Below are positions 2-20,652 of a stretch of DNA of 20,652 nucleotides, one piece after another. Within the stretch, counting starts at the first letter, position 1. Every line of letters begins with the position of its first letter. Made by a program: the position numbers and the translations under genes. Source of the DNA: a virus (taxonomy: Duplodnaviria; Heunggongvirae; Uroviricota; Caudoviricetes). The stretch spans positions 1-20,652 of IMG/VR virus record IMGVR_UViG_3300026512_000004, one strand, 5' to 3'. Below the pieces are notes generated by a model, which saw only the letters and a list, made by a program, of their open reading frames with translations, ran no database searches and was not told where the DNA came from.

Positions 2-1372
2 GACAGTAAAAGTAACGAGGAATTCTATGATAGATTACATACTTTAGCACGTAAATTGTTCTTCTACGCAAGTTTAAAACCTATCACTGTTAACCTTGAT
101 GATTTGATGAAGGCGAGACGTAAAGTTAAGGAGTTACCTCATAATCCTATTGTAGGTAGTTATCTTGTTGAGATGATTACGGATCAAGCGTTGGAAAATA
201 TATCTGGAACCGATTTGGATATTCTGTACAAATCAGGATCACGTTTATCTCGTGAACAGTTTAGGAAAGCTTGTGTTATTGGTGGATATGTAGCAGATGT
301 ACACAATAAGGTGTTACCGAAACCTATTATGAATTCCGTAATTGAAGGGTTGCCTGAAAAAGATTTCTTTCTTGCTGCACAAGGTACACGTAAAGCGTTG
401 ATAGATAAGTCCATATGGACACCAAGGTCTGGTTATTTGGAGAGAACTTTGGTGTTAACATTGACTGCCGTAGAAATCAGTGAAGATGATTGTGGTGACG
501 AGTTTGGTCTGAAGATTAAAATACCGAGTCAGTTCGTCAAGTACTTTAAAAACAGATATTGGAGATATCCCGGAGAAACAGAATGGAGACAAGGACAACC
601 ACCTGCAGAACAAGATATAGAGTTAAGGTCACCAATCACTTGTAAAGCTGAATGGCCGAGATTATGTGCAAAATGTGCTGGTAAATTTCCGCTGAAGCAT
701 ATTGGAGTTATAGCGGCACAGTGTATTGCAGAACGTTTAACACAGTTAATTTTAAGAACCTTTCATACATCTGGAGCGGCAAGTTTAACAATTGATAAGG
801 AAGTCTTACAACTCATTAAAGAAAATATTGTTGACTGGACTCAAAAATCTATCCTTTTGAAGAAGTGTAGTAAAATCCAGCGCATCATAGATGTCACTAA
901 CCCGATACATGTAGAATATAAAGATGATGTAGTCGAATTAATTTATAGTGAACAAGTATTAGATAACGCGGACATTATTGAAAGATTGAACACATTGAAA
1001 TCGCTTTTCAGAGAGACAGAGAATCCAAATCCACCTCAAGATGTATTACTTTGGTTATTAAAAGAGTACACTAAGATTGGTGATATATTTGCGGTACTGA
1101 TTGAAGTATTACTTTCTATGTTGTATTGGTACAAAGACGGAAATCGTTATGTGCCGTTTCGCAAGCCTGCTTTAGGCAAGTTGATTATACCTTCTTTGAG
1201 GCGTATACCCGGTTTAATTTCTACATGTTTAGGCATGTTATATATGCCAAATTACAAGACTTTCTTAGAGTATTTACAAAATCCAACTAGTGTAGGCAGT
1301 ATTCATGAAATACTTTGGGAGCGCAATTTTGATTATCTGAAAGCTCTGCAAAATGAACGTACTAGAGTTTAG
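2..1372 (+). CDS. rpoC: Viral multi-subunit RNA polymerase beta'-like subunit, C-terminal part (set A); 5'-truncated by the window edge
   Basis: Frame is open from position 2 (DSKSNEEFYDRLHTLARKLFFY...), so the track start at 56 is not the true start. Motifs: KSGSRLSREQ (cf. SGARGS), bridge helix FFLAAQGTRKALIDKSIWTPRSGYLERTLV, EDDCG plus RSPITC..LCAKCAG (bacterial-type Zn site), trigger loop GVIAAQCIAERLTQLILRTFHTSG, late LIEVLLSML (cf. HIEVIVRQM). Confidence 0.93.
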   Translation, partial: DSKSNEEFYDRLHTLARKLFFYASLKPITVNLDDLMKARRKVKELPHNPIVGSYLVEMITDQALENISGTDLDILYKSGSRLSREQFRKACVIGGYVADVHNKVLPKPIMNSVIEGLPEKDFFLAAQGTRKALIDKSIWTPRSGYLERTLVLTLTAVEISEDDCGDEFGLKIKIPSQFVKYFKNRYWRYPGETEWRQGQPPAEQDIELRSPITCKAEWPRLCAKCAGKFPLKHIGVIAAQCIAERLTQLILRTFHTSGAASLTIDKEVLQLIKENIVDWTQKSILLKKCSKIQRIIDVTNPIHVEYKDDVVELIYSEQVLDNADIIERLNTLKSLFRETENPNPPQDVLLWLLKEYTKIGDIFAVLIEVLLSMLYWYKDGNRYVPFRKPALGKLIIPSLRRIPGLISTCLGMLYMPNYKTFLEYLQNPTSVGSIHEILWERNFDYLKALQNERTRV

Positions 1373-2300
1373 ACAAAAAGATTACGACAGAATTTTCACA
1401 ACATACATACCTACATTAGTAAAAATAAAATACCCGGATGCTACTAACATAAAGATTGAAAAAGAAGAAGTATGTACATATACAAGTTGGTGGTATCGGA
1501 TAAAATGTACATTTGATTGTGTGAAAGGAACAGTTGAACAAACAGTTATGATTCCTATACTTGAAAACCAGCTAATGAAGTTGCGGGGTACATATTATAT
1601 ACCAAGATATTGGCTGGTTTCTGCACCTTTAGTTCGTCGTAAAAAGACAGTCGTAATATGGTCCTGGTTGAAACCAATAATAGTAGATATTATGAAGGAT
1701 AGAGTTTATTTTCAAGTAGTTAGGGAAACAAAACCGAGCGTTAATATTGACGAGGACTTCAGTACCTTTATGAATACTATTGGTTGTTCTGATGAAGAAT
1801 GTCCTTTGCGTAGTGAATGTAGATTGACAGCGAGAAATGAGTTCAAATATGATTTTAAGATGATTAACGACATTTTCTTCGATGATTGGACATTACGAGT
1901 ATATACGGATTGGTTTCCGAATGTTGAAAAACACTGTGCCTTCCGTTACTTTGTTGAAACGGTTTTTACGGATAAGTGTACAGATTTAAATGATATGCGT
2001 CAGAAACGTTTATCCTGTTTTGAAAATTGGTTCAAAAGTTTAATACTGTTAAGCGATTGGAGTCGGACACATTTAGTAGATTTCGAGAATTTATTAGCAG
2101 TTCCAGAAGCTAATCCGTTGAGCATAATAATATTGTCTCTAAAATGTTATGAAGTTGGTTCCTCTTTGGAATCGATTAAGTTTAATGAAAGTTTTGAATA
2201 CATAATTTGTCCAGTTTCGTTATCCGATCAGGAACCGTTGAAGTATTCTACACTTTTACCTGAAGTAGAAGTTAATGAGATTGGACGTTTCTTAAAATGA
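1353..2300 (+). CDS. rpoB: RNA polymerase beta-like subunit, N-terminal part (set A), strongly reduced
   Basis: TVMIPILENQLMKLRGTYYIPRYWLVSAP matches the beta region-A motif (GDFPLMT..GTFIINGTERV.VSQL.RSP). NESFEYIICPVSLSDQEPLKYSTLL matches [25 protein letters not shown]. The N-terminus aligns with the paralogous beta from about nt 17330. ATGA overlap with the beta C-part. Confidence 0.72.
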   Translation: MNVLEFRQKDYDRIFTTYIPTLVKIKYPDATNIKIEKEEVCTYTSWWYRIKCTFDCVKGTVEQTVMIPILENQLMKLRGTYYIPRYWLVSAPLVRRKKTVVIWSWLKPIIVDIMKDRVYFQVVRETKPSVNIDEDFSTFMNTIGCSDEECPLRSECRLTARNEFKYDFKMINDIFFDDWTLRVYTDWFPNVEKHCAFRYFVETVFTDKCTDLNDMRQKRLSCFENWFKSLILLSDWSRTHLVDFENLLAVPEANPLSIIILSLKCYEVGSSLESIKFNESFEYIICPVSLSDQEPLKYSTLLPEVEVNEIGRFLK

Positions 2301-3994
2301 TAGCATTAGGGCCACCTTTTACGGCACAAACGGATACAACACGTTTACAAATGGCTACGAAACAATTTGCTCAGACTTTAGTACATGAGACCTGTGAAAT
2401 ACCTTATGTGATAACACGTGAAATGCTTGGTTTATCTTTTCCTCCTTTAGTTATACGTGCTCATAAGGATTGTGAAGTTGAGAAATATGGCAGGTTATTG
2501 TTAGTCGATGATAAAGTATATTGGGTGGAAGATTTCCTCGCGGGTACACCCTTACGTTACGTGAAAACAGGTAAAGTACATGAAGGAGAAGTTATTTGTG
2601 AATATGTAGGGTTCAAAAACGGTATTGTTACTTCTGGTTGGAACAGTGTTGTTGCTTTTCTACCATTCTTTGGATATAATTATGAAGACGCTATTGTTGT
2701 GTCAGAACGTTTTGCTAAGAAAACTGTCCACACTACTGTTGAAGAATATTTGATACCAGTATACGAAGACACCACTATCTATGAAGCTCCAGATAAAATA
2801 CATTGTGAAGGTAATATCAAATTTAGATGGTCTTCTAAGACAACTATAGATACCATTTCTGATTTAGTTGATTTTATATTCGGTAGAAGTGCAAATGATG
2901 AACTTGTAATTGAAAATGCTAAATGGATACAAATACGTACTTATAAGATAGCAAGAAAACCTAAATTGTTATCAAAAAGTACAGAAGAGATAGTTAGTAA
3001 ACTGTATAAACAATATGTTGCTCAGTTAAGAGGTGAAGTAGAAGCTGTAAGTAAGGTTTTGCCTACATTTGTTCACGATTATTTGAACAGATTGATCATC
3101 ACAATGGACGATGTCCGGATTAATGACTTGTTCCCTTATCGTAGTAAATTACAGTACATCATTCACGTAATCGCTAGATTCGACAAAGATTTAAAAGTTG
3201 GTGATAAGTTATGCAATAGGTATGCAAATAAAGGAGTTGTGTCTCTTATAATTCCAAATGAATTAACTCCAGAATATCAAGATACAGATGGATCTTGGAA
3301 GAAGATAGAAGTTTTATTAAACCCATTAGGACTTTTCGCGAGAATGAATATGGGCCAGGTCTGGGAGTTGTATATTGCTCGTATTGTTAAGAAGTTGTGG
3401 TCCGAAGGTGATGAGAAGAATTTCCAGAAACTGTGCGAGTTGCTGAAAGCACCAGAACAAGAGTTCAAACCATATTTAATAGTTGATAAAATTTCTTACT
3501 TCGATGTTGACCGTGTTTATGCATTTATCAACGAGCAATTAGGTGGAACCGTTACCAAAGTTCGATACAAGAGGGAGTTGTTGGAGTGGTTGAAAGATAA
3601 TTATGGTGCTGATTTTGATTGGCCAATAACTGGTGACGTATACGTACAAGCAAGTGTTGGTATTCAGTATATACAGAAGTTAAAACAAACTGCAGAATCT
3701 AAAATCAATGTTAGAGACTTAGGCCCGTACAGAATAATAACAAAACAGCCCACACGTGGTAAAAAGAAATCTGGTGGTTCACGTATCGGTTACATGGAAA
3801 TAGATGCGTTAATAGCACACGGTGCATTAGACACGTTAAAAGAGTTAACAACTATAAAATCTGATTGTGTAGACGAAAAGGTTAAAATGGTGAAAGATAT
3901 GGTGTCAGATAGGAAACCCGATTTGAAAAATGTCAAATCCTACACGAAGAGGACCGTTGATCACATAATGGCTGCGTTATCGGAGATGTTGTAG
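2297..3994 (+). CDS. rpoB: RNA polymerase beta-like subunit, C-terminal part (set A)
   Basis: PFTAQTDTTRLQMATKQFAQ (cf. [20 protein letters not shown]), FFGYNYEDAIVVSERF, LKVGDKLCNRYANKGVVS, LLNPLGLFARMNMGQVWE, GPYRIITKQPTRGKKKSGGSRIGYMEIDALIAHGA, ELTTIKSD. Confidence 0.96.
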   Translation: MIALGPPFTAQTDTTRLQMATKQFAQTLVHETCEIPYVITREMLGLSFPPLVIRAHKDCEVEKYGRLLLVDDKVYWVEDFLAGTPLRYVKTGKVHEGEVICEYVGFKNGIVTSGWNSVVAFLPFFGYNYEDAIVVSERFAKKTVHTTVEEYLIPVYEDTTIYEAPDKIHCEGNIKFRWSSKTTIDTISDLVDFIFGRSANDELVIENAKWIQIRTYKIARKPKLLSKSTEEIVSKLYKQYVAQLRGEVEAVSKVLPTFVHDYLNRLIITMDDVRINDLFPYRSKLQYIIHVIARFDKDLKVGDKLCNRYANKGVVSLIIPNELTPEYQDTDGSWKKIEVLLNPLGLFARMNMGQVWELYIARIVKKLWSEGDEKNFQKLCELLKAPEQEFKPYLIVDKISYFDVDRVYAFINEQLGGTVTKVRYKRELLEWLKDNYGADFDWPITGDVYVQASVGIQYIQKLKQTAESKINVRDLGPYRIITKQPTRGKKKSGGSRIGYMEIDALIAHGALDTLKELTTIKSDCVDEKVKMVKDMVSDRKPDLKNVKSYTKRTVDHIMAALSEML

Positions 3995-9345: not shown

Positions 9346-9813
9346 ATGAGAAAGTTTTATGACGATGTTGTCGAAGTATCACTCGAGGAGGTTCTCGCCA
9401 ATCCTGAAGATGCTATTCTTGAAGCTGTATCACGTAAGCTTCCTGTGGAACTGAAGAAGAAACTTCGTAAACCTACTCTTCGTCGCGAGATGCTTCAGAA
9501 ATGTGGTAAAAAAGCATTTCTTATTCCTGAAGAGCTTAAGTTTCCTGTGATGGATCCTGATACTTGTCAATATGATTGTAGATTAATTTATGCTGCATTT
9601 GTACGCGCCAATCAGTGGAAGAAGAAAAATCCTCGGTATACTGAGGTAGCTGAGAAAGCAAGAAAATTGTACGAAAAAAATAAATGTGATCTCAAGATAG
9701 GTGTGCACATTCGCGAGACCGATGAAATTGTCGAGCTTTCTCAATTTGCTGAATATGTAATGACACTTGTTGAGGATGAAGAGATGATAAACAATAATAA
9801 GTCTTCTTCTTGA
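9346..9813 (+). CDS. Small basic Cys-containing protein of unknown function, resembling a family recalled from nucleocytoplasmic large DNA viruses
   Basis: KPTLRREMLQKCGKKAFLIPEELKFPVMDPDTCQYDCRLIYAAFVRANQW...VAEKARKL matches from memory the giant-virus pattern R..ML.KCG.KCFL.P...FPIC...TC.....G.YAAY.RA.Q......A.KA..L. Strong RBS supports real expression. Confidence 0.5.
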   Translation: MRKFYDDVVEVSLEEVLANPEDAILEAVSRKLPVELKKKLRKPTLRREMLQKCGKKAFLIPEELKFPVMDPDTCQYDCRLIYAAFVRANQWKKKNPRYTEVAEKARKLYEKNKCDLKIGVHIRETDEIVELSQFAEYVMTLVEDEEMINNNKSSS

Positions 9814-9840
9814 ACAGAAATCTAAATCCCAGGTAGGGCA

Positions 9841-10977
9841 ATGCGACTTGTTACTGTTATTGATGCTAAGACTTGGTACCCAACAGATAACTTGTATGGA
9901 ACACTTATTTCGCTGATACATGGAATTAATCTTAATATTGGACGACATATTATAACACGTGTTACCAATGCTCTAACACGTGTTAAATCCGAAAAGAAAT
10001 ATGTTGATTCTGGTGGTTATTCTATCATTGTAGGTGACGTTCACCCCCGTGATTTTCGTTTATTCATCCAATACTATGTCCATTTTCTAGATACTGCTGA
10101 CCCTAATTTGTATGACTATTTATTCTCGCTTGATATACCGGTACTTTTGAAATATCCTAATACTAAAATCACACAGCTGTACGAATACAATAAACTCAGC
10201 TTATCGGAGACGTTTAATGTATTAAATGTAAAACCAGATTTAAAAAAGAAACTCATCTTTATCTGGCAATTTAAAGTTGAAAACGTTTATGAAATGTGGT
10301 CTCAACTCGTTGATGATTTTTCTGTGTATGAACATTTCGACAAGTTTGGTGTTGGTGGGATGGTTGGAATTCGTCGTCTTACTGGCATCTCCTTTACGCC
10401 TTTTATAGGGCCATTCTTTCGTATTTTATATGATTGTCGTAGATACAATGTTCAGCCCAAATTAATTCACTTTCTGGGTATCTCGAACTACACAGATCGT
10501 ATTGTAGGTTCTATTTTACAACATATTTTAAACAAAGTGTTAAATTATGATACTATCATCAGTTATGATACGTTCGCAGTTATAACACGAGGTATGATTA
10601 AACAAAGAATGCCTCGAGAAATACTGGAAATGTACGACAAAGGACGTAGATGGACACGTGAGGAATTAGCCGAAGTAGTACGTGCTAATATTGATTATTG
10701 GGTTAAAGAGGATAAGGAAATAAGTCGTACAACAGAGAGTTTAACTGAAGTTATTACTGATGTTACGAAACCAATTGAATTTCGTGTAAGGGAGTGTATA
10801 TTACGTTTATCACCGCTGAAATTGTCGAATAATCATATTAAAGAACTTGAAACATCCTTGAAGATGTTGACGTTTGCGTGGAATAAATACTGCGAGACTG
10901 ATGATTTACAAGTCTTTAATGAGAAGGTAATGAAACCGTTTATTCGTTTAATTGGATTACCCAATTTGCCGAATTAA
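9841..10977 (+). CDS. tRNA-guanine transglycosylase-fold protein, DpdA-like (putative DNA 7-deazaguanine insertion enzyme)
   Basis: TGT motifs appear in order: YVDSGGYS (cf. DSGGFQ), LFSLDIP (substrate Asp), IFIWQF (Gln), FGVGGMVG (cf. AVGGL), IHFLGIS (cf. YLMGVG), ISYDT (nucleophile Asp). No C-terminal CxCxxC Zn site. Confidence 0.75.
   Translation: MRLVTVIDAKTWYPTDNLYGTLISLIHGINLNIGRHIITRVTNALTRVKSEKKYVDSGGYSIIVGDVHPRDFRLFIQYYVHFLDTADPNLYDYLFSLDIPVLLKYPNTKITQLYEYNKLSLSETFNVLNVKPDLKKKLIFIWQFKVENVYEMWSQLVDDFSVYEHFDKFGVGGMVGIRRLTGISFTPFIGPFFRILYDCRRYNVQPKLIHFLGISNYTDRIVGSILQHILNKVLNYDTIISYDTFAVITRGMIKQRMPREILEMYDKGRRWTREELAEVVRANIDYWVKEDKEISRTTESLTEVITDVTKPIEFRVRECILRLSPLKLSNNHIKELETSLKMLTFAWNKYCETDDLQVFNEKVMKPFIRLIGLPNLPN
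9953..9985. repeat. Two identical 12-bp palindromes (TAACACGTGTTA) with a 21-bp period, inside the DpdA-like CDS
   Basis: Copies at 9953-9964 and 9974-9985; each is its own reverse complement. Confidence 0.75.
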
Positions 10978-10980
10978 CCT

Positions 10981-12267
10981 ATGCCTCTCACACTTAAGCT
11001 TATTGATATCGACAAATTAATCGAACAAGAAAACCTTAAAGAAGTTAAATCTGCCAAACCATATATACGTGAACGTGTAGGTCGATTTGATCCCGAAGGA
11101 CTTTGGTCAGAGGAGATTTTTGGACCTGTTGGTAGTGAAGAAAGACGTAAAAAGTTTGCCTATGTGAATTTAGGAACAGTTATTATACATCCCCAGTTAT
11201 ATCCTGTAGTTGGTCGTCTCTCACCTTCTTTCCAGAAATGTTTAACAGGTAAGGGTAAATTTAAAGTACAAAATGGTAAACTTGTTCAAAGTGATGATGG
11301 TGGTTTCGGACCTCTTTTCATTTACGAAAATTTCGATAAAATTGATTGGTCTCAATATGAACTTAAGGATCCGAGAGCAGTCAAGGCTATATTGAAATAT
11401 GGTAAAAAGATGTTTTACGATAAATGGTTGATACTTCCTGCAGGTGTGCGTGACATATTACAAGTAGGTAAAACCCAACGTGTTCAGTACTCTGAAATTA
11501 ACATGTTATATGTTCAGTTAGTCTCTTTAGTAACAACCGAGGCTAAAAGTATATCTAAATACAGTTTGTCCGTTGCTGTTCAGGAAGTTATTAATAAGAT
11601 AGCTGCGTGGATAAAGAATAGGATGAAAGGTAAGTCTGGTGCTATACGTGGCATGGTACTTAGGAAAACCGTGGACTTTTGTGCAAGAGGTACAATTGTT
11701 GGTAATCCGAAACTTGATATTGACCAGATAGAACTACCGTGGTATGTATGTATCAAGTTATTTGAACCTTTTGTCATACACAAGTTAATGAAAGAGCGTC
11801 AAGACTTAATGCAAATCATTGCTGATGTGTTGGAACTAGAATCTACCCCGAATGTAACTGATTTACAAAGATTTTTACGTGAGGTTGCTGATAATAAGGG
11901 AACAACGATACCACCCTTTTTGCGCGATCAACTACGTGAGTTAGTTGCTGAAATTGTGACAGATAAATTAGTACTTTGTAAACGTGATCCAGTTGAAACA
12001 CGAGCAAACTGGTTTGCTGCTCGAGTTGTAGTCAGTGATGGTACTTATTTCGGTATACATCCATCTATGTGTACTAGACTTCAAGGAGATTTTGATGGTG
12101 ACGCAATTGGTGTTTACGCTGTTTTAACGGAGGAAGCACAGAAAGAGGCAGAGAAGTTGTTACCAAGCAAGTCCAGAACATCTTGGTTATCCGTGAAGAA
12201 CTATGGAGACCAACATCACACTGTAGAATTAGATGCAGCAGCTATAATTTATTACGCAACCTCGTAG
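10981..12267 (+). CDS. rpoC: RNA polymerase beta'-like subunit, N-terminal part carrying the catalytic loop (set B)
   Basis: GLWSEEIFGP, ILPAGVRD, SEINMLY, MKGKSGAIRGMVLRKTVDFCARGTIVGNP, KRDPVETR, HPSMCTRLQGDFDGDAIGVY (cf. NADFDGDQM), EEAQKEAEKLL; ends ELDAAAIIYYATS (cf. SQD.VLGLYY.T). Confidence 0.97.
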   Translation: MPLTLKLIDIDKLIEQENLKEVKSAKPYIRERVGRFDPEGLWSEEIFGPVGSEERRKKFAYVNLGTVIIHPQLYPVVGRLSPSFQKCLTGKGKFKVQNGKLVQSDDGGFGPLFIYENFDKIDWSQYELKDPRAVKAILKYGKKMFYDKWLILPAGVRDILQVGKTQRVQYSEINMLYVQLVSLVTTEAKSISKYSLSVAVQEVINKIAAWIKNRMKGKSGAIRGMVLRKTVDFCARGTIVGNPKLDIDQIELPWYVCIKLFEPFVIHKLMKERQDLMQIIADVLELESTPNVTDLQRFLREVADNKGTTIPPFLRDQLRELVAEIVTDKLVLCKRDPVETRANWFAARVVVSDGTYFGIHPSMCTRLQGDFDGDAIGVYAVLTEEAQKEAEKLLPSKSRTSWLSVKNYGDQHHTVELDAAAIIYYATS

Positions 12268-12273
12268 ACCAAT
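12263..12273 (+). repeat. Left copy of a short direct repeat flanking the helicase gene (CGTAGAC-C-AAT)
   Basis: Contains the beta'N stop (TAG 12265-12267) and runs into the helicase ATG; matches 13734-13743. Confidence 0.5.
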
Positions 12274-13738
12274 GCCTGATTTTGGAGTAGTTTGGGGTGC
12301 ACCATTATCGACACAGTATCAACCACAACAATCTGATGCAGTGGATAATCCTTGTAAACAACTTGATCACAATCAAAAACGGTTATACGATAGGTTAAGT
12401 CGTGGATTTGATGTAATAGTTGCATGGAGCCCATCTGCTGGTAAAACGCGTCCTATTGTTTGTTGGGCATTGGAACAACTACATCCTTTTCTACAGCGTC
12501 ATCAGGTTACTGTAGCAGATCCCAGTCCTATAATTAAAAACATGATTTACGATGCTGTAAGCAAAGGTGTCATAAGACAAGTTATTTGGTTAGTTCCAAT
12601 TAAACAACTATTAGAGGGGATAGCTTCTGACTTAGCGGGATCTATATTAGATGTCATACGGATTTATTATCCTGATTATAAAAGCACAAGTTTAATACCA
12701 GGACGCGAATTTGTAGCAACTATGGGTGAAGGTCAGTATACTGGTGATTTAGACAAGTGTCCATTTGTAGTTGCCATTTATGAGTCATTTGCCGAACACA
12801 TCATTAAATATCAACATCATCCATTGTTGATTGTATTTGACGAGACACAGGAAGTTTATGTCCAAGATAATCAGCGCAAATCATTACGTAAAGCACTTGG
12901 TACTATATTACAAGGATTGAAAGCTCGTTGGAAAAATACGAGATTTGTTATGTTAACTGGTAGTTTACATTCTGCTGATATTGCGCAAGCATATGAATTC
13001 CTTACAGCTTATTTCGGCAATCAACGTAAAATACTTGCAGATTATGTTGATCAACCTAATAGGTCACATTTAATTATCATACCAGATCCACATGTACGTG
13101 ATCCTCAAACTATTAAATACTATGTAACACAGTTGAAAAAAGGTACCTGTATTATTTTGTTTTCTAAACGACTGATAGATGAGTACATGAATTGGGCTCT
13201 ATCACGATTGCCTATTGATCAATCTGTATATACGGAACGTGTGACTGTTAACGGTCAGACTTATCATGTACGTGATGTGCTTAAATTTTTACCTAAGAGA
13301 TTAGCCGAATTAGCAGTACGTCGTGTTACCTATCTTTACCGTGATCTTGACCGTGAATATCTACAGGCTTTACCTTGGATACAAGCATTATTTAGTCAGG
13401 GTATTATAAGAGTTGCATTTGCTACTGATGCTATAGGGAAAGGAGTCACACTTGATATACAGACCTTGATAATACCAACTATAAAGAAGACTGGTGGTAA
13501 ATTGTCACCTAGTGATCTAATACAGTTAGTACACAGAGCAGGTAGAGGTAAACAGCCTGTGGCAAAGATTATTTGTCATCCAGATGACTACGATGTTATT
13601 GTCAAAGCAGCGTTAGCCAATAGGGACACATTTGTAGAACCTGGTACAGTAAAACTTGATAAAATTGATACATTGTTAGTATTTTTAAGTTCAATATTTC
13701 GATCTCTTAGACAATCTAGTGACCACACATTAGCGTAG
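12272..13738 (+). CDS. Superfamily 2 (DExD/H-box, Ski2-like) helicase with two RecA domains and a short C-tail
   Basis: Motif I AWSPSAGKT, Ia LVPIKQL, II VFDETQE, III MLTGS, IV IILFSKR, V ATDAIGKGVTL, VI QLVHRAGRG. Confidence 0.93.
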   Translation: MPDFGVVWGAPLSTQYQPQQSDAVDNPCKQLDHNQKRLYDRLSRGFDVIVAWSPSAGKTRPIVCWALEQLHPFLQRHQVTVADPSPIIKNMIYDAVSKGVIRQVIWLVPIKQLLEGIASDLAGSILDVIRIYYPDYKSTSLIPGREFVATMGEGQYTGDLDKCPFVVAIYESFAEHIIKYQHHPLLIVFDETQEVYVQDNQRKSLRKALGTILQGLKARWKNTRFVMLTGSLHSADIAQAYEFLTAYFGNQRKILADYVDQPNRSHLIIIPDPHVRDPQTIKYYVTQLKKGTCIILFSKRLIDEYMNWALSRLPIDQSVYTERVTVNGQTYHVRDVLKFLPKRLAELAVRRVTYLYRDLDREYLQALPWIQALFSQGIIRVAFATDAIGKGVTLDIQTLIIPTIKKTGGKLSPSDLIQLVHRAGRGKQPVAKIICHPDDYDVIVKAALANRDTFVEPGTVKLDKIDTLLVFLSSIFRSLRQSSDHTLA

Positions 13739-13743: not shown

Positions 13744-15507
13744 ATGGCTACCAAGTATATAACTACTTTAAGTCAAGTTTACAACGAATTATCGCAAGGT
13801 GCAAAACTGAAAGATAAGTATAAATTTCGTCACGCTAAGAAAACTAAGGATCAAGAAATTGTCACAACTTTAGGACGCATTTGGTTTAATTTACTTTTAC
13901 CAGAAGATTATCCGTTTGTAGATGAACCGATTGGGAAAAAGATGTTAAACAACAAAATACTGAAAAATATACTTGATAAATATGGTCCAGAGGAAGCAGC
14001 AAAGGTTGTTAAACGTATTTACGAAGAAGCATTTAAACTATCTTGTTATTTGCCTGTAACATTTGAATTTGAGAAAATTGAGCCACCTAAGTATTTGTTA
14101 GAAAAACGCAATGAACTCGTTAAGTGGATTGAACGAGAAGATCCTAAACCTGACGAGGTAATGCAAAAGATTAAGGAACTTCAAAAAGAGTACGAAAAGT
14201 GGCTTCAGGAAAATGATGTCTTACTTTACTACGCAGTTAAAGGTGGTGCAAAGGGCAGCTTGGCAGATTGGTCGTCAATGACGTTGATACGTGGTTATAC
14301 GACTAATGTTAAAGGTGAAATCTCTAAAAAGCCTATCATACATTCTATGAACGAAGGTTACGACATAGAAGAGTGGCTAAACGCAGCTAACCAATCTCGT
14401 CGTGCTCTATATCTTCAGTCCACACACGCTGCAGAACCTGGATATCTTGCAAGACGTGTTGTCTTTGCCTGTGATCATATTGAAATATCTTCTGATGACT
14501 GTGGAACCACTAAATATTGGAAGATTCACGTAAATGAGCGCATTGCACAAAGTATTAAAGGGCGTTACTACATAGATGGTAGTAAATTAAAAAGAATAGA
14601 TAACCCCGAAAAATTGATTGGTAAAGACATACTTCTACGTTCACCATTGTATTGCAAAGATAAAAATGGAATATGCGCAATTTGTTATGGTGATCTTTGG
14701 AAAGAGTTAGAAACTAGAAGAGTTGGTATTATTGCCGGTGCTATCACTAACACAGTATTATTAGGGTTAAATCTAAAAGCCAAGCACAGGATTATGTTAT
14801 TTGACATAGAAAAAGTAAATTTCATTGAAAGATTAAAAGGTAACGACGAAGCGTTTAAACTCTTAGACATCAAAGAGACTGAGATACGTGCTAAGGAACC
14901 TAGCATTATCTATATAGATAAAAGCGAATACAGAGAATTAGTAGACCTTCCGGACTATATAGTAATACCGGGTGTCTTCTCAATCCAAGTTGGAAACAAG
15001 GAGGTATCTATAGGTGTTCCGTTTAATGTAAAAGTGTTTAAAACTGCGAATACAGAAGAAACGGAAGAAGATATACTAATACGCTATGACAAGGGTGATA
15101 TTATTATTAAACAAGAATATGCAGACGTATCACCCTCTTTCGATGCAGTGGAGAAGTTATTAGAAGCAAGAGCTAAGTACATTAAGAACCCAGAAATTTT
15201 GGTCAATTTAGTTCATGAATTGATGTCGCGTGCTAAACCATTAGACTTAGTACATTGTGAAGTTATAGTTGCTAATATGTTTAGACGTGCAGATAATCCT
15301 AGAGAACCTTGTAGGATAAGAGGAAGTTATAAAAATGCGGTTGTGATAGGCCAAACTAAATTACCGTTTATTGACAGTTGGTTGAAAGCAGTTGCATTCG
15401 AGAATATAGATTATGCATTGACAAATGCATTGATAGATGGAAAATCCGCCAAAGGAACACCGTTGGAGAAAGTATTATTGGCCGACCTACTCGGAAGTGA
15501 GAGTTAA
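13744..15507 (+). CDS. rpoC: RNA polymerase beta'-like subunit, C-terminal part (set B)
   Basis: TTLGRIWFN, KGGAKGS, HSMNEGY, bridge helix ANQSRRALYLQSTHAAEPGYLARRVV, SDDCGT plus LRSPLYC..GICAICYG (Zn site), VGIIAG, HCEVIVANMFR, SWLKAVAFENIDYALTNALIDGK...PLEKVLLADL. Confidence 0.95.
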   Translation: MATKYITTLSQVYNELSQGAKLKDKYKFRHAKKTKDQEIVTTLGRIWFNLLLPEDYPFVDEPIGKKMLNNKILKNILDKYGPEEAAKVVKRIYEEAFKLSCYLPVTFEFEKIEPPKYLLEKRNELVKWIEREDPKPDEVMQKIKELQKEYEKWLQENDVLLYYAVKGGAKGSLADWSSMTLIRGYTTNVKGEISKKPIIHSMNEGYDIEEWLNAANQSRRALYLQSTHAAEPGYLARRVVFACDHIEISSDDCGTTKYWKIHVNERIAQSIKGRYYIDGSKLKRIDNPEKLIGKDILLRSPLYCKDKNGICAICYGDLWKELETRRVGIIAGAITNTVLLGLNLKAKHRIMLFDIEKVNFIERLKGNDEAFKLLDIKETEIRAKEPSIIYIDKSEYRELVDLPDYIVIPGVFSIQVGNKEVSIGVPFNVKVFKTANTEETEEDILIRYDKGDIIIKQEYADVSPSFDAVEKLLEARAKYIKNPEILVNLVHELMSRAKPLDLVHCEVIVANMFRRADNPREPCRIRGSYKNAVVIGQTKLPFIDSWLKAVAFENIDYALTNALIDGKSAKGTPLEKVLLADLLGSES

Positions 15508-15736: not shown

Positions 15737-16225
15737 ATGGCAAGTAACAAAGGTAAACAGAAGGGTAACAAATATGAACGCGATGTAGCTCGTAAACTTA
15801 GTCTCTGGATGTTTAATGATTCTGAAGCACTTTGGCGAAATAGTTCGTCTGGTGCCCGTGGTTATAAAGGCGACATAGTGCCCTACAAACCTATTCCATG
15901 GAAAAGATGGCCGTTTCTTGTTGAGGTTAAAGCAGGTTACTTAAGACAAATGCCTAAAGGTCTATCATATCCAAACATAGTAGAAGAGTGGTTGATTAAA
16001 GCATGTAACCAATTAGGTGGGCAACAAGAGTACGTCTTATTGATTATTAAGTTCCATAGATGTCGTGATGTTCTTATAACTACGAAAGCCAGTTTGATTA
16101 AAACTAGACCTTATTTTATCTTTCTACCTAATTCATCTAAAGTACGCGGTTATGTATACGACTTCGCTACTCTTCTTGCTTCACCTTTTCACAAAACTGT
16201 AAATATGAGAATACTCAAGATTTAA
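15737..16225 (+). CDS. Holliday junction resolvase, Hjc-like PD-(D/E)XK nuclease
   Basis: KQKGNKYERDVARKL, WRNSSSGARGYKGDIV and FLVEVKAG follow the Hjc pattern KG...ER...L...R...SG....D....E.K. Confidence 0.85.
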   Translation: MASNKGKQKGNKYERDVARKLSLWMFNDSEALWRNSSSGARGYKGDIVPYKPIPWKRWPFLVEVKAGYLRQMPKGLSYPNIVEEWLIKACNQLGGQQEYVLLIIKFHRCRDVLITTKASLIKTRPYFIFLPNSSKVRGYVYDFATLLASPFHKTVNMRILKI

Positions 16226-16229
16226 CGAT

Positions 16230-19200
16230 ATGGCGTTAATAAGTAAAATTCACATCAACGAACCAATCGACAGCCTTTACTTTGATCCCAACCATGCGCA
16301 TGTACTATTAGTGTTTTCAGATGCTAAACTATCCACAATAAAAGACTTGCCAATACACTGGTCACAGTGTAGGGCAACGTTAATACCACCTAGTATTAAC
16401 TACGGTCGTAGACGTGTTCTTAGTGGTCTAATTAGTAGGTATAAAAAGGAAATGCCAGAACAGAAATGGATGCTCACTTTTCCACGTCAAATTGAGAATA
16501 ATAAGTTGGTCATTTATGTTATTCATGCTAAAGACTTTGAATATGCCGATTGGATATATTGTAGATGTGGAAGTGAAAAGAAGTTTGTAGATACACTTTT
16601 TACTCGTGTACTCAATAGGTATTACGAAAGTATTAAGAGGAAGTATCCCTATGCCAAAGTACATTTTCTTTTTCATCATACAGACCCAACTAGTTCTTTA
16701 AGATCTGTTTTTGAATATTTAGCAGACAGGCCTCGTGTTTTAGAAGACTACAGAAAGTACATAACAGATGACGTGATACTTGGTGCTGTACCTAATAACA
16801 CTTTATTTGCTATTGTAGATTCTTTTGGCAGACTATCAAGACAAGCTTTGAAAACCATGTTGTTTACTACAGAAGTTGAACCCGAAGAAAAATCTACCAA
16901 ACCTATAAAAGTTAAAAACTCTTTTGTCAAGCCTATAGTTTCTAAGAGTTTACTAAAATCTGCTGTCGATGTTGCTGAAACTCCGAAAGGCAAACCTATC
17001 TACAAAGTTTCTATAACAGAATTAAAGAAAATTCTGCGTAAATATGGTATAAAAGATGAAGCTGCTATTGCTTTGGTAAAAGACGAAGTCGAAGATTATT
17101 TGAATAATGTAAAAGAAGTGAACCCAAATGATTTAGAGAGTGTTATTTTGGACGCAATTTATAGATCTGTTTATGGTACGGAGAGACCAGAAGGACAAGC
17201 TACTGACATTAAATCTTTAGTCGAAACATTGGCCGTTGAAAAGTTTGCCCGTAAATTATCCTATTCAAAGTCGCCAGCAATACCTTTAGATCCAAATGAA
17301 ATCATCGATTTGAAGGAATCTACATCTGCTTTTCGTCATGAAATAGAGTTCGAACATTGGGTTGATAAACACTTCACAGATCTTTTCAAGGCACTTGAAA
17401 CTAGACCTGATAATCCTGTTAAAGTACTTAAAATAGATCGTGAAATTATTGACGAACCTGATAACAGGTATATTAGATATACAGTTACCTTACAGAATAC
17501 TGATTGCGGTTCAAAGAAACCTTATCAAGTTGAATTAAAAGTACCCTATCCTATCAACGGTAGATACTACAGATTGAAAGGGAAACGTTATTTAATTGCT
17601 AATCAATTACACTTACGTCCTATTACTAAAACTAAGAAAAACGAAGTTCGTTTTCTGAGTGCATTCGCTACTATCACCATTAGACTTGTCAATACACGCT
17701 ATACTTTTGACGACATTGAGTTGATGTTAGATTATTTACAAAAGATTTTACCAGATAAAGTTAGAAAAGAAGATGGAGTTTGGGTCTTAGGCGATAATAA
17801 GATTTACTTAGATATTACAAGTCCCGAGATTGTTGTCAGTGAATCTAAACGTATTTATCAAGAAGGTGACACGTTTTTTGTCGAAGAAAATGGAGAAAAA
17901 AGAGAACTTCCCAAATATAAGAGTAGATCACACATATTGTTCGATTTTATTCGTAATTGGTGTATAGATACAACTGGTAAAGATATCCTGCGTCAGGGCA
18001 AAGCAGTACCTTACTTTCAAATTCACATAGCAGGCTTGAAAATGCCACTAATTATTTTCCTGGCTGAACGCATGGGACTTTTGACAGCTTTAAATAAGCT
18101 TAACATAGAGTTTCATATTGCCAAAAAGTTTGATAAAAGGTATACTGTTTCTGTTCCGCTAGAAGGCGGTAATTCTGTTTTTATTGTCGCTTCAAATACT
18201 AAAGAGGAATTTATTGTAAATGGGTTATGTGCTGTTAAAAAGATGCCTACTTTTAAAAATCCAGATGACTATCTTGAGTGGCGTAGGTTTGTGGTCGAAA
18301 GGTACGGTGACAAAATTAAATCTTTTGACGCTGCTGCCAAAAACTTCATAGATCCAATTACACGTGATTTATTACGTTTAGAGGGTAACCCGACCACTTT
18401 TCTTGATGTTATCACAGGACCGATGATCGATCGACTCGTAGATAAGAAGGCAGACGATATTTCCAATTTAGCCATCTATCGCGTGAGATTGTCTGAAATG
18501 CTTTATCACATTATTTTCACACAGATTATGCAAGCTCATTCTAGATATGCTACTAGATGTAAACAAGGTGATGAAAATGCTAGAATGGAGTTTAATTCTG
18601 ACTTTATCATTAACACGTTGTTGTCTGGTTCAGGCGTTTTGATGAACATAGAGCCGTTAAATCCTATGGAAGAAGTGATGCGTTCAAACCGTGTTATAAA
18701 GACCGGTCCTGGTGGAGTTCCCTCTAAACGTATGATTGCTTTAGCTCATAGGAATATTGACAAGTCACATATAGGTAATCTTGGTTTTGTATCCACTTCT
18801 GAATATCAGGACGTCGGTATTCAACTGTATTTAACTACTAATCCTAAAATAAGTAACAGATATGGCATTTTAGGGTTATCAAGCGTAAACAATAAGTGGG
18901 AAGTTGTCACTTGGGACGAAGCAACTATACCTTTTGTTAATGGCCTTGACACTACACGTGCTATAATGGCTACAACACATGCTAAACAGGTGTCGCCGTT
19001 GGTGTCCAGAGAGATACCTTACGTAATGACAGGTGCCGAATACGTAATACCACAGATTTCATCTGATAGATTTGTCATACGTGCCGAAAAACCAGGTGTT
19101 GTTGAGGAAGTTACGGAACATTACATCAAAGTACGTTATGACGATGGAACTGTTAGATATTACGATGTTTTTCCGAGAATTGCTAAGACAAAAAGATCAG

Positions 19201-20652
19201 CTACTGTCGTTCTTAATATGGAAACATTAAAACCAGGTGACCATTTTGAGAAGGGTGAATTGTTAGCTTGGACACAACATTTTAAGGATGGTGTCTATGC
19301 AACAGGTAAAAACCTAAAAATAGCTGTTATGAATTATCTTGGATATAACCACGAAGATGGTTATGTATTGACAGCTGACGCAGCTAGTAAATTGGAGGTT
19401 ACAACTGCTCAAGAAATAGAGGTTTTAATACCAGAAGATGCTAAAGTTTTACAGTTCATTGATAAAGTGGGATATGTAACAGCACCACAGGAAACCTTAT
19501 TGGAGTTTACGTATGACAAGTCTTTAGATGATTATATTCATGAATTAGAAGGTGAAACTGATGTAACTGATATCGATGATGATATGAGAAACAAGTTTTT
19601 CAGAATGTCTGGTAAGACTATCAAGGTTAAAAGTCCAGGTGGTCGTATTGTCGATATACGTATTTATATCAATAGTCCCAGAAAGGTAGATAAAAAGATT
19701 ATAGATGCTTGGAAAAGACTTACAGCAGTGCTTAAAGAGAAGATGACGTTGTGTTCTAAAGATGGTATTCCTGCTACCGACAACTTTGATAGCTCTGTGT
19801 TGAAAACCGGTATACATAAACACAGAGGTGTTCCTTTCAAAGGTGTAAAAATTGTCTTCTACATTAGTTCACCAAAACTAGTTGAAAAAGGTGACAAACT
19901 TGCAAACAGATACGGTGCTAAAGGTATTGTAACACATATCATAGAACCAGATTTCACACCGTATAGTGAATTTCTTGGTCCTCTGGACATCTTCATTTCT
20001 CCTTTGGGTATTTTTGGTCGTAAGAATATCGTATTTTTGAAAGAGATATATACTGGTAAAATAATGTACGTATTAAACCAACGTGTTAAAGAATGGTTGT
20101 CTACTAAAATGAAAACAAGCGAGATTGTATCACGTATTTGTGACGTTTTAAATGCTTTGGGTGCCAAGAGACAAGTTGATTCGCTTAAAAAGGAACTCAA
20201 ACAAGTTAGTAATGTGCGTAAATACTTACAAACTGTCCATATTCCATTGATAGTTCCACCACATACACAGATATCATTTAAGCAATTAGGTGAAGCAGCT
20301 AAATTACTGGGCATACCATTAGATGAACATGTTTATATTCCAGAATTAGGTGCTTGGACAAAACACAAAGTACCTGTTGGAGTATCCTACTACTACGTAT
20401 TAGAACATTATGGCGATCCAACTATAACTGCACGTGCCTCTGAGAAGGTTTCTATGTTAACAGGTCAACCTTTAAAAGGTCGTAGAAAGGGTGGTAAGGC
20501 GATTGCTATTGGTAATTTAGATGTGTATGCTATGCTATCTTGGAACGCGGATAATATACTGACAGAGTTGATGACTGTAAGATCTGATTATCCTGATGCT
20601 AAAATGCAAGTGATTCGTCAAATTATACGTGAAGGACGTGCTAATTTGCCGA
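16230..20652 (+). CDS. rpoB: RNA polymerase beta-like subunit (set B), unsplit, with ~365-aa N-terminal extension; 3'-truncated and absent from the ORF track
   Basis: ATG at 16230 (MALISKIHINEP...); I found no in-frame stop to the window end (about 1474 codons, read by hand). Motifs: LKVPYPINGRYYRLKGKRYLIANQLHLRPI, GPGGVP, HRNIDKSHIGNLGFVSTSEYQDVGI, PFVNGLDTTRAIMATTHAKQ, GKNLKIAVMNYLGYNHEDG, EKGDKLANRYGAKGIV, ISPLGIFGRKN, VLEHY, LTGQPLKGRRKGG, ELMTVRSD. Confidence 0.95.
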   Translation, partial: MALISKIHINEPIDSLYFDPNHAHVLLVFSDAKLSTIKDLPIHWSQCRATLIPPSINYGRRRVLSGLISRYKKEMPEQKWMLTFPRQIENNKLVIYVIHAKDFEYADWIYCRCGSEKKFVDTLFTRVLNRYYESIKRKYPYAKVHFLFHHTDPTSSLRSVFEYLADRPRVLEDYRKYITDDVILGAVPNNTLFAIVDSFGRLSRQALKTMLFTTEVEPEEKSTKPIKVKNSFVKPIVSKSLLKSAVDVAETPKGKPIYKVSITELKKILRKYGIKDEAAIALVKDEVEDYLNNVKEVNPNDLESVILDAIYRSVYGTERPEGQATDIKSLVETLAVEKFARKLSYSKSPAIPLDPNEIIDLKESTSAFRHEIEFEHWVDKHFTDLFKALETRPDNPVKVLKIDREIIDEPDNRYIRYTVTLQNTDCGSKKPYQVELKVPYPINGRYYRLKGKRYLIANQLHLRPITKTKKNEVRFLSAFATITIRLVNTRYTFDDIELMLDYLQKILPDKVRKEDGVWVLGDNKIYLDITSPEIVVSESKRIYQEGDTFFVEENGEKRELPKYKSRSHILFDFIRNWCIDTTGKDILRQGKAVPYFQIHIAGLKMPLIIFLAERMGLLTALNKLNIEFHIAKKFDKRYTVSVPLEGGNSVFIVASNTKEEFIVNGLCAVKKMPTFKNPDDYLEWRRFVVERYGDKIKSFDAAAKNFIDPITRDLLRLEGNPTTFLDVITGPMIDRLVDKKADDISNLAIYRVRLSEMLYHIIFTQIMQAHSRYATRCKQGDENARMEFNSDFIINTLLSGSGVLMNIEPLNPMEEVMRSNRVIKTGPGGVPSKRMIALAHRNIDKSHIGNLGFVSTSEYQDVGIQLYLTTNPKISNRYGILGLSSVNNKWEVVTWDEATIPFVNGLDTTRAIMATTHAKQVSPLVSREIPYVMTGAEYVIPQISSDRFVIRAEKPGVVEEVTEHYIKVRYDDGTVRYYDVFPRIAKTKRSATVVLNMETLKPGDHFEKGELLAWTQHFKDGVYATGKNLKIAVMNYLGYNHEDGYVLTADAASKLEVTTAQEIEVLIPEDAKVLQFIDKVGYVTAPQETLLEFTYDKSLDDYIHELEGETDVTDIDDDMRNKFFRMSGKTIKVKSPGGRIVDIRIYINSPRKVDKKIIDAWKRLTAVLKEKMTLCSKDGIPATDNFDSSVLKTGIHKHRGVPFKGVKIVFYISSPKLVEKGDKLANRYGAKGIVTHIIEPDFTPYSEFLGPLDIFISPLGIFGRKNIVFLKEIYTGKIMYVLNQRVKEWLSTKMKTSEIVSRICDVLNALGAKRQVDSLKKELKQVSNVRKYLQTVHIPLIVPPHTQISFKQLGEAAKLLGIPLDEHVYIPELGAWTKHKVPVGVSYYYVLEHYGDPTITARASEKVSMLTGQPLKGRRKGGKAIAIGNLDVYAMLSWNADNILTELMTVRSDYPDAKMQVIRQIIREGRANLP

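Follow-up and report, generated by a model that had tools for sequence, protein, structure and literature searches.

Why one of two RNA polymerase (RNAP) beta subunits encoded in the same stretch of phage DNA should carry roughly 365 amino acids (aa) ahead of the point at which beta begins is the question raised by IMG/VR virus record IMGVR_UViG_3300026512_000004. The analyzed stretch, hereafter the window, covers positions 1 to 20,652 of this 122,127-nt virus contig (estimated ~51% complete; GC ~36%) and holds two RNAP gene sets, A and B. The beta gene of set B begins at position 16230 on the + strand and runs past the edge of the window to contig position 20723, and its product is, as judged from its sequence, an intact and unsplit RNAP beta subunit. 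We conclude that this open reading frame (ORF) probably encodes the virion-type beta of a divergent, uncultivated large phage and that residues 1 to ~360 make up the virion-beta N-terminal module of its lineage, most likely dedicated to virion-specific steps. At stake is how a five-piece enzyme that has no alpha, omega or sigma is put together, gets into the prohead, travels through the tail and recognizes early promoters.

The set B beta subunit and the boundary of canonical beta

The ORF opens with an ATG at 16230, 24 nt past an in-frame stop at 16206, and remains open to the edge of the window (16230–20652, 1474 aa). The last 71 nt lie outside the window, and the stop at contig position 20723 brings the gene to 1497 codons. 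A preliminary description of this DNA had noted a beta ORF of more than 1470 aa from 16230, missing from the supplied gene track only for want of a stop in the window, and was right on both counts. Pfam and PHROG matches identified the product as beta. PF00562 (Rpb2_6, Rpb2 domain 6) was matched at residues 1010–1420 (19257–20489, + strand; E 4e-25), which places the catalytic double-psi beta-barrel region of RpoB/Rpb2 in this ORF, and bacterial beta subunits in the PDB were matched by phmmer at E 1e-37 to 1e-40. Two PHROG families that bear a phage RNAP beta annotation (~1400 aa), 3148 and 14872, aligned from residue ~590 to residues 1264–1289.

The N-terminal lobe/protrusion fold of RpoB/Rpb2 is likewise present. 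In a 15-sequence alignment of the family, residues 367–467 hold the motif R..FEF followed by VP..N.RY.KLNG..YI...Q...P.TK, which we take, by comparison with E. coli beta, to be the motifs at the N-terminus of bacterial beta. Residues 1–900 were modelled with AlphaFold from an 18-sequence alignment (mean predicted local distance difference test score, pLDDT, 68.7; about 80–90 over residues 370–800). In structure alignments, this model matched solved beta chains from residues 346–365 onward, and residues 346–810 aligned with the beta-N of the AR9 and phiKZ non-virion RNAPs (nvRNAPs) and with bacterial beta. The canonical N-terminal lobes were accordingly placed at residues 367–810 (17328–18659, + strand), the boundary at nt 17328 agreeing with the earlier placement of the start of RpoB homology near nt 17330. 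Since the solved chains align only from residues 346–365 on, residues 1 to ~360 precede everything that cellular and non-virion betas possess.

Assignment of the two polymerases

In order to assign the two gene sets, their products were compared with the paired polymerases of known phages. Residues 880–1497 of set B beta scored 64.9 bits against phiR1-37 g099, annotated as a phage structural protein, as compared to 43.5 bits against the 670-aa non-virion-type beta-C of the same phage. A similar difference was observed for Staphylococcus phage S6, with 52.4 bits against S6_1000 and 27.7 bits against the other beta, and g099 was the best reciprocal match of the catalytic half of set B beta. Set A beta is split (1353–3994, + strand) into an N-part of 315 aa and a C-part of 565 aa. 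Its beta-C (2297–3994) matched the non-virion class only, including a 665-aa AR9 frame that has the length of PDB chain 7s00_C. Its beta-N (1353–2300) opens with MNVLEFRQKDY, that is, at the canonical start with the motif at residue 6 and no extension. The beta' subunits also separated, set B beta' (13744–15507) having phrog_2962 as its best match and set A beta' favoring phrog_3015.

Taken together, the reciprocal matches, the beta' families and the extension-free set A beta-N assign set B to the virion-type and set A to the non-virion polymerase. The suggestion in the preliminary description that set B is the packaged enzyme is thereby borne out at the level of orthology. No Pfam, PHROG or PDB match was detected for the N-part of set A beta. 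Set A beta is also very compact, its two parts having overlapping stop and start and amounting to ~880 aa, against 484 and 665 aa for the AR9 nvRNAP chains.

Anatomy of the N-terminal extension

The extension was modelled separately as residues 1–366 from a 15-sequence alignment (mean pLDDT 74.7; predicted template modelling score 0.55). The model supports the layout proposed earlier of an alpha/beta domain, a linker and a helical domain. The alpha/beta domain is predicted at residues 1–212 (16230–16865, + strand), mostly at pLDDT 80–95, and is Rossmann/P-loop-like. It is followed by a K/E/S/V-rich linker at residues 213–255 (16866–16994, + strand), predicted to be disordered with pLDDT below 50 over residues 214–255, and by the helical domain at residues 256–335 (16995–17234, + strand), the model placing a beta-hairpin and four helices over residues 246–335. 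A connector at residues 336–366 (17235–17327, + strand) leads into the canonical beta N-terminus.

Conservation within the family was uneven. Mean pairwise identity was 23% for the N domain, 14% for the linker, whose length is hypervariable (23–65 aa), and 37% for the helical domain, the best conserved part of the extension, as compared to 48% for the first 100 residues of beta. K136 and D180 were the only invariant residues of the alpha/beta domain.

Comparison with known virion polymerases

Every known or presumed virion-type beta checked had 340 to 520 aa ahead of the canonical beta start, and non-virion paralogues, set A included, start at the beta motif itself. The region ahead of the motif measured ~520 aa in phiKZ-like phages (AH04 gp263 and six others), ~355 aa in TSMG0076, the gp178 homologue of Halocynthia phage JM-2012, ~415 aa in phiR1-37 g099, ~410 aa in the virion beta-N of AR9, PBS1 and BpSp and, from tblastn offsets, ~420–440 aa in Listeria LPJP1 and Staphylococcus S6. 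As this region is shared by all of them and has been discussed in the literature (PMC5694885), the 365-aa extension is not novel in the sense first proposed. It adds a divergent new example to a feature already known from virion RNAP betas.

The closest likeness was found by structure. A Foldseek search of BFVD with the 1–366 model, in which entries were identified by organism name and/or length, several being nameless in the table, returned as its best match a 921-aa protein of PBS1 (E 2.3e-8, probability 1.0, 375 columns). It is encoded by PBS1 gene 80, whose AR9 orthologue is g189 (annotated "virion RNAP subunit, beta N-terminus"), so that the modelled extension is similar to the N-terminal part of virion beta-N in PBS1/AR9. 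On the question whether it corresponds to a well-characterized virion RNAP domain the answer is divided, the match to the PBS1 virion beta-N being clear and that domain itself functionally uncharacterized. The second match (E 1.9e-6) was a 1393-aa entry, equated with phiR1-37 g099 by length and accession series only, so that the predicted fold probably resembles the g099 N-terminus as well. A metagenomic myovirus "RNA polymerase subunit" came third (E 8e-5), and an entry of 1292 aa, as long as the JM-2012 protein, matched weakly (E 8e-3). Two further entries, A0A6B7ER73 (462 aa; E 9e-5) and A0A7G8ALW9 (461 aa; E 1e-3), matched the whole extension model over ~450 columns and could represent the module as a free-standing protein.

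The lineages differ in how beta is divided. In the Bacillus phages AR9 and PBS1 (AR9 g189; PBS1 gene 80) and BpSp (gp250), beta is likewise of the virion type, but it is split, its AR9 gene also contains an intron, and an HD domain is attached to beta-C, whereas set B beta is a single 1497-aa chain. Although the PBS1 predicted structure is the best match of the extension model, likeness in extension sequence is barely detectable. The betas of phiR1-37 (g099, 1393 aa), S6 and LPJP1 are also unsplit or nearly so, with an N-terminal region of ~415–440 aa, but show only ~23–25% identity to set B beta even in the conserved core. The phiKZ-like beta-N proteins (phiKZ gp178, SPN3US gp241, 201phi2-1 gp274/273, AH04 gp263 and JM-2012 TSMG0076) have their extra region in the equivalent position and a similar layout of N domain, acidic/charged low-complexity linker and helical region before beta. 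This region, of 340–520 aa, shows no profile similarity to the present extension, and the phiKZ-like beta has a separate small beta-C that is fused in set B beta. A tblastn alignment with JM-2012 starting at residue 285 was dropped as evidence for homology of the helical domain, since the profile comparison with JM-2012 aligned the beta motif only and nothing in the extension.

Function of the module

A role in virion-specific steps is considered most likely because only the packaged paralogue carries the module. The virion-type polymerase would be a multisubunit enzyme that is packaged, ejected and active in early transcription. Virion RNAP (vRNAP) goes into the prohead as a pre-assembled complex, and the long propeptides of giant-phage head proteins have been proposed to act like the capsid-targeting sequences of T4 (PMC5694885). 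The module would then recruit the pre-assembled polymerase into the prohead and might also aid its ejection. The exposed linker could offer the phage's head-maturation protease a site for trimming. A precedent is 201phi2-1, in which vRNAP beta is reported to lose a 275-aa N-terminal propeptide at TFE-275 (PMC5694885). Such trimming is conceivable here because the contig encodes a head-maturation protease outside the window (contig 92176–92928, - strand; phrog_207 E 5e-15, phrog_3014 E 6e-11; PF03420, the T4 gp21 family, 17.9 bits and below cut-off). Capsid targeting, possibly with proteolytic removal, is our best guess for the function of the module. As in T4 and the giant-phage propeptides, an N-terminal element is carried by a protein that would be packed into the prohead and ejected, but the T4 signals are 10–20 aa long whereas the set B module is predicted to be folded and measures 360 aa.

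A number of observations weigh against this assignment. Two folded and conserved domains far exceed what a T4-type targeting signal of 10–20 aa would need, and the fact that the best conserved part is the helical domain beside the beta lobe may point to a task in the polymerase itself. The SPN3US vRNAP beta retains its N-terminal region in the mature virion (PMC5694885); loss of the region is hence no general rule, and the module may have its role inside the enzyme. In the 15-sequence alignment, the linker showed no conserved cleavage motif of the [S/A/G]-x-E type, the single TTE at the start of the linker (residues 213–215) not being conserved. By hhalign, the extension profile was collinear with the phiR1-37/Bacillus/Staphylococcus/Listeria group but only weakly similar (E 0.009), and no similarity to the phiKZ-like N-terminal region was detected (E 0.25). 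Homology to the phiKZ-like module rests only on equivalent position, the similar three-part layout and the weak Foldseek hit mentioned above. Finally, as the protein is known from a metagenome contig alone, we infer both its location in the virion and any cleavage.

Some of the same observations are accommodated by a different explanation, namely that the module serves the virion polymerase as an integral working part and not for packaging. It could be a built-in initiation/promoter-specificity element or a DNA- or RNA-handling element, and would replace the absent sigma or the fifth subunit of the non-virion enzyme (gp68/gp226). This is the main rival reading, which we regard as rather unlikely. 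Alpha, omega and sigma are all absent from jumbo-phage RNAPs, and vRNAP has no known specificity subunit (PMC7598289, PMC13282480). The SPN3US enzyme works with the region attached to its beta (PMC5694885), the helical domain by the beta lobe is better conserved than the N domain, and the module is fused in all relatives, even where beta is split further downstream. On the other hand, the 201phi2-1 enzyme is reported to work after losing its 275 N-terminal residues. Conservation of the module between lineages is also poor, and no fold match backs a role in initiation, specificity or assembly. Neither alpha N-terminal domain nor sigma domains were among the PDB, AFDB, Atlas and Pfam matches, though a remote relationship might escape such lists. 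Of the roles suggested in the preliminary description, those of an assembly platform (alpha-like) and a promoter-specificity module (sigma-like) gained no backing from the fold searches, and capsid targeting is the most plausible.

A broader proposal is that all virion RNAP betas of jumbo phages, in the present lineage, AR9/PBS1, phiR1-37, the Staphylococcus and Listeria phages and the phiKZ-like phages alike, have as their N-terminal region one ancient homologous two-domain module. It would be essential to the packaged polymerase, coupling the enzyme to the interior of the prohead and acting in early-promoter initiation after ejection. We think this improbable. If true, the module would be to the virion enzyme what the specificity subunit is to the non-virion one, a counterpart that has long been sought. 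In reviews up to 2026, neither a function for the N-terminal region nor a vRNAP structure is given (PMC7598289, PMC13282480), and our searches of the PDB by sequence and by fold, and of the literature, found no structure of a jumbo-phage virion RNAP.

The alpha/beta domain could also be imagined as a cryptic P-loop-class nucleoside triphosphatase (NTPase) or kinase delivered with the polymerase, analogous to the HD phosphohydrolase fused to the virion beta-C of Bacillus phages. Enzymatic domains fused to vRNAP subunits provide a precedent (PMC7598289). There is, however, no Walker A motif (GxxxxGK[ST]) in this protein or in the family consensus, K136 and D180 alone being invariant, and the domain has no Pfam match. 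Membership of the P-loop NTPases was rejected for lack of the Walker A motif, and the chance that the domain is such an enzyme is slight.

The lineage reveals no new kind of system but offers a compact unsplit beta, a confidently modelled three-part module and distant relatives that fix the boundaries of the module. This allows clean design of constructs that separate a packaging signal from a part of the enzyme.

Relatives of the extension

A phmmer search with residues 1–380 against 1.8 billion representatives yielded 14 collinear metagenomic relatives (E 7e-8 to 7e-4), all of them distant. Matches begin at the relatives' own N-termini, with the exception of P0004, which is shorter at that end, and in the long relatives beta domains lie downstream of the matched region. 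Several of the relatives have a full-length beta (1129–1577 aa) and others a split beta-N of 850–990 aa. Among the longer relatives scanned with PHROGs, six of nine matched phrog_3148. The same architecture was observed on 180–315 kb IMG/VR contigs, in a 1542-aa ORF of L004 and an 895-aa ORF of L008. The closest relative, P0018 (1552 aa, 32% identity), has the same gene order of beta'N, helicase, beta'C, small ORF and beta.

Outside this family the extension found little. Megablast and tblastn searches of 50,697 phage records with residues 1–380 returned zero matches, and Pfam and PHROG returned none of significance, HBD (E 0.08) and phrog_30521 (E 0.007) being below any threshold. A word-indexed search of 5.8 billion proteins recovered only the protein itself, its profile version added only P0018 and a few beta subunits, and a search by ESM features gave low scores (0.81) to RpoB fragments only. 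Beyond its own family the extension is, by these searches, an orphan in sequence.

Conservation runs uninterrupted from the very N-terminus through residues 355–375, across the junction with beta, and the start of the gene lies 4 nt past the stop of the upstream gene, a gap that fits translational coupling. The residues of the extension are therefore judged to be genuine and translated, as the preliminary description had assumed. That translation really starts inside the ORF near nt 17330, or that an assembly or sequencing error has joined two genes, is hardly credible and was rejected: no clear Shine-Dalgarno sequence precedes the ATG at 16230, but the frame is continuous over the junction in separate records (the 14 relatives together with L004, L008 and P0018), codons 210–499 contain no ATG, and the sole alternative start near the junction is a TTG at codon 361, itself without a Shine-Dalgarno sequence.

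Neighboring genes

The genes described next lie upstream of beta, all on the + strand. The N-part of set B beta' (Rpb1 domain 2; Pfam, PHROG) lies at 10981–12267, preceded by an ORF at 9841–10977 that matched nothing in Pfam (E<=0.1) or in PHROG (E<=0.01). Between the two beta' genes is a superfamily 2 helicase (DEAD/Helicase_C; 12272–13738; Pfam), in the same order as in relative L022, which agrees with the description by Iyer et al. (PMC7824862) of a Rad25-like helicase linked to RNAP. The middle/C part of set B beta' follows at 13744–15507 (phrog_2962 E 7e-36). Its C-terminal ~200 aa matched phrog_2926, "virion structural protein" (residues 373–578, E 2e-6), and may be the equivalent of gp244, which in SPN3US is a small beta'C subunit of its own. 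If so, with beta'C joined to the middle of beta' and beta unsplit, the virion enzyme would consist of fewer polypeptides than the five of phiKZ-like phages.

Directly upstream of beta is a PDDEXK/RusA-like nuclease (15737–16225; PF24608 E 3e-9, phrog_244 E 5e-10), which places a resolvase-like nuclease inside the vRNAP operon. An ORF 45% identical to it occupies the same position in L004, a 314-kb contig (782–1285), and in L022 the slot is filled by a different small ORF (9418–10038) with an N-terminus that appears, by eye, RuvC-type resolvase-like.
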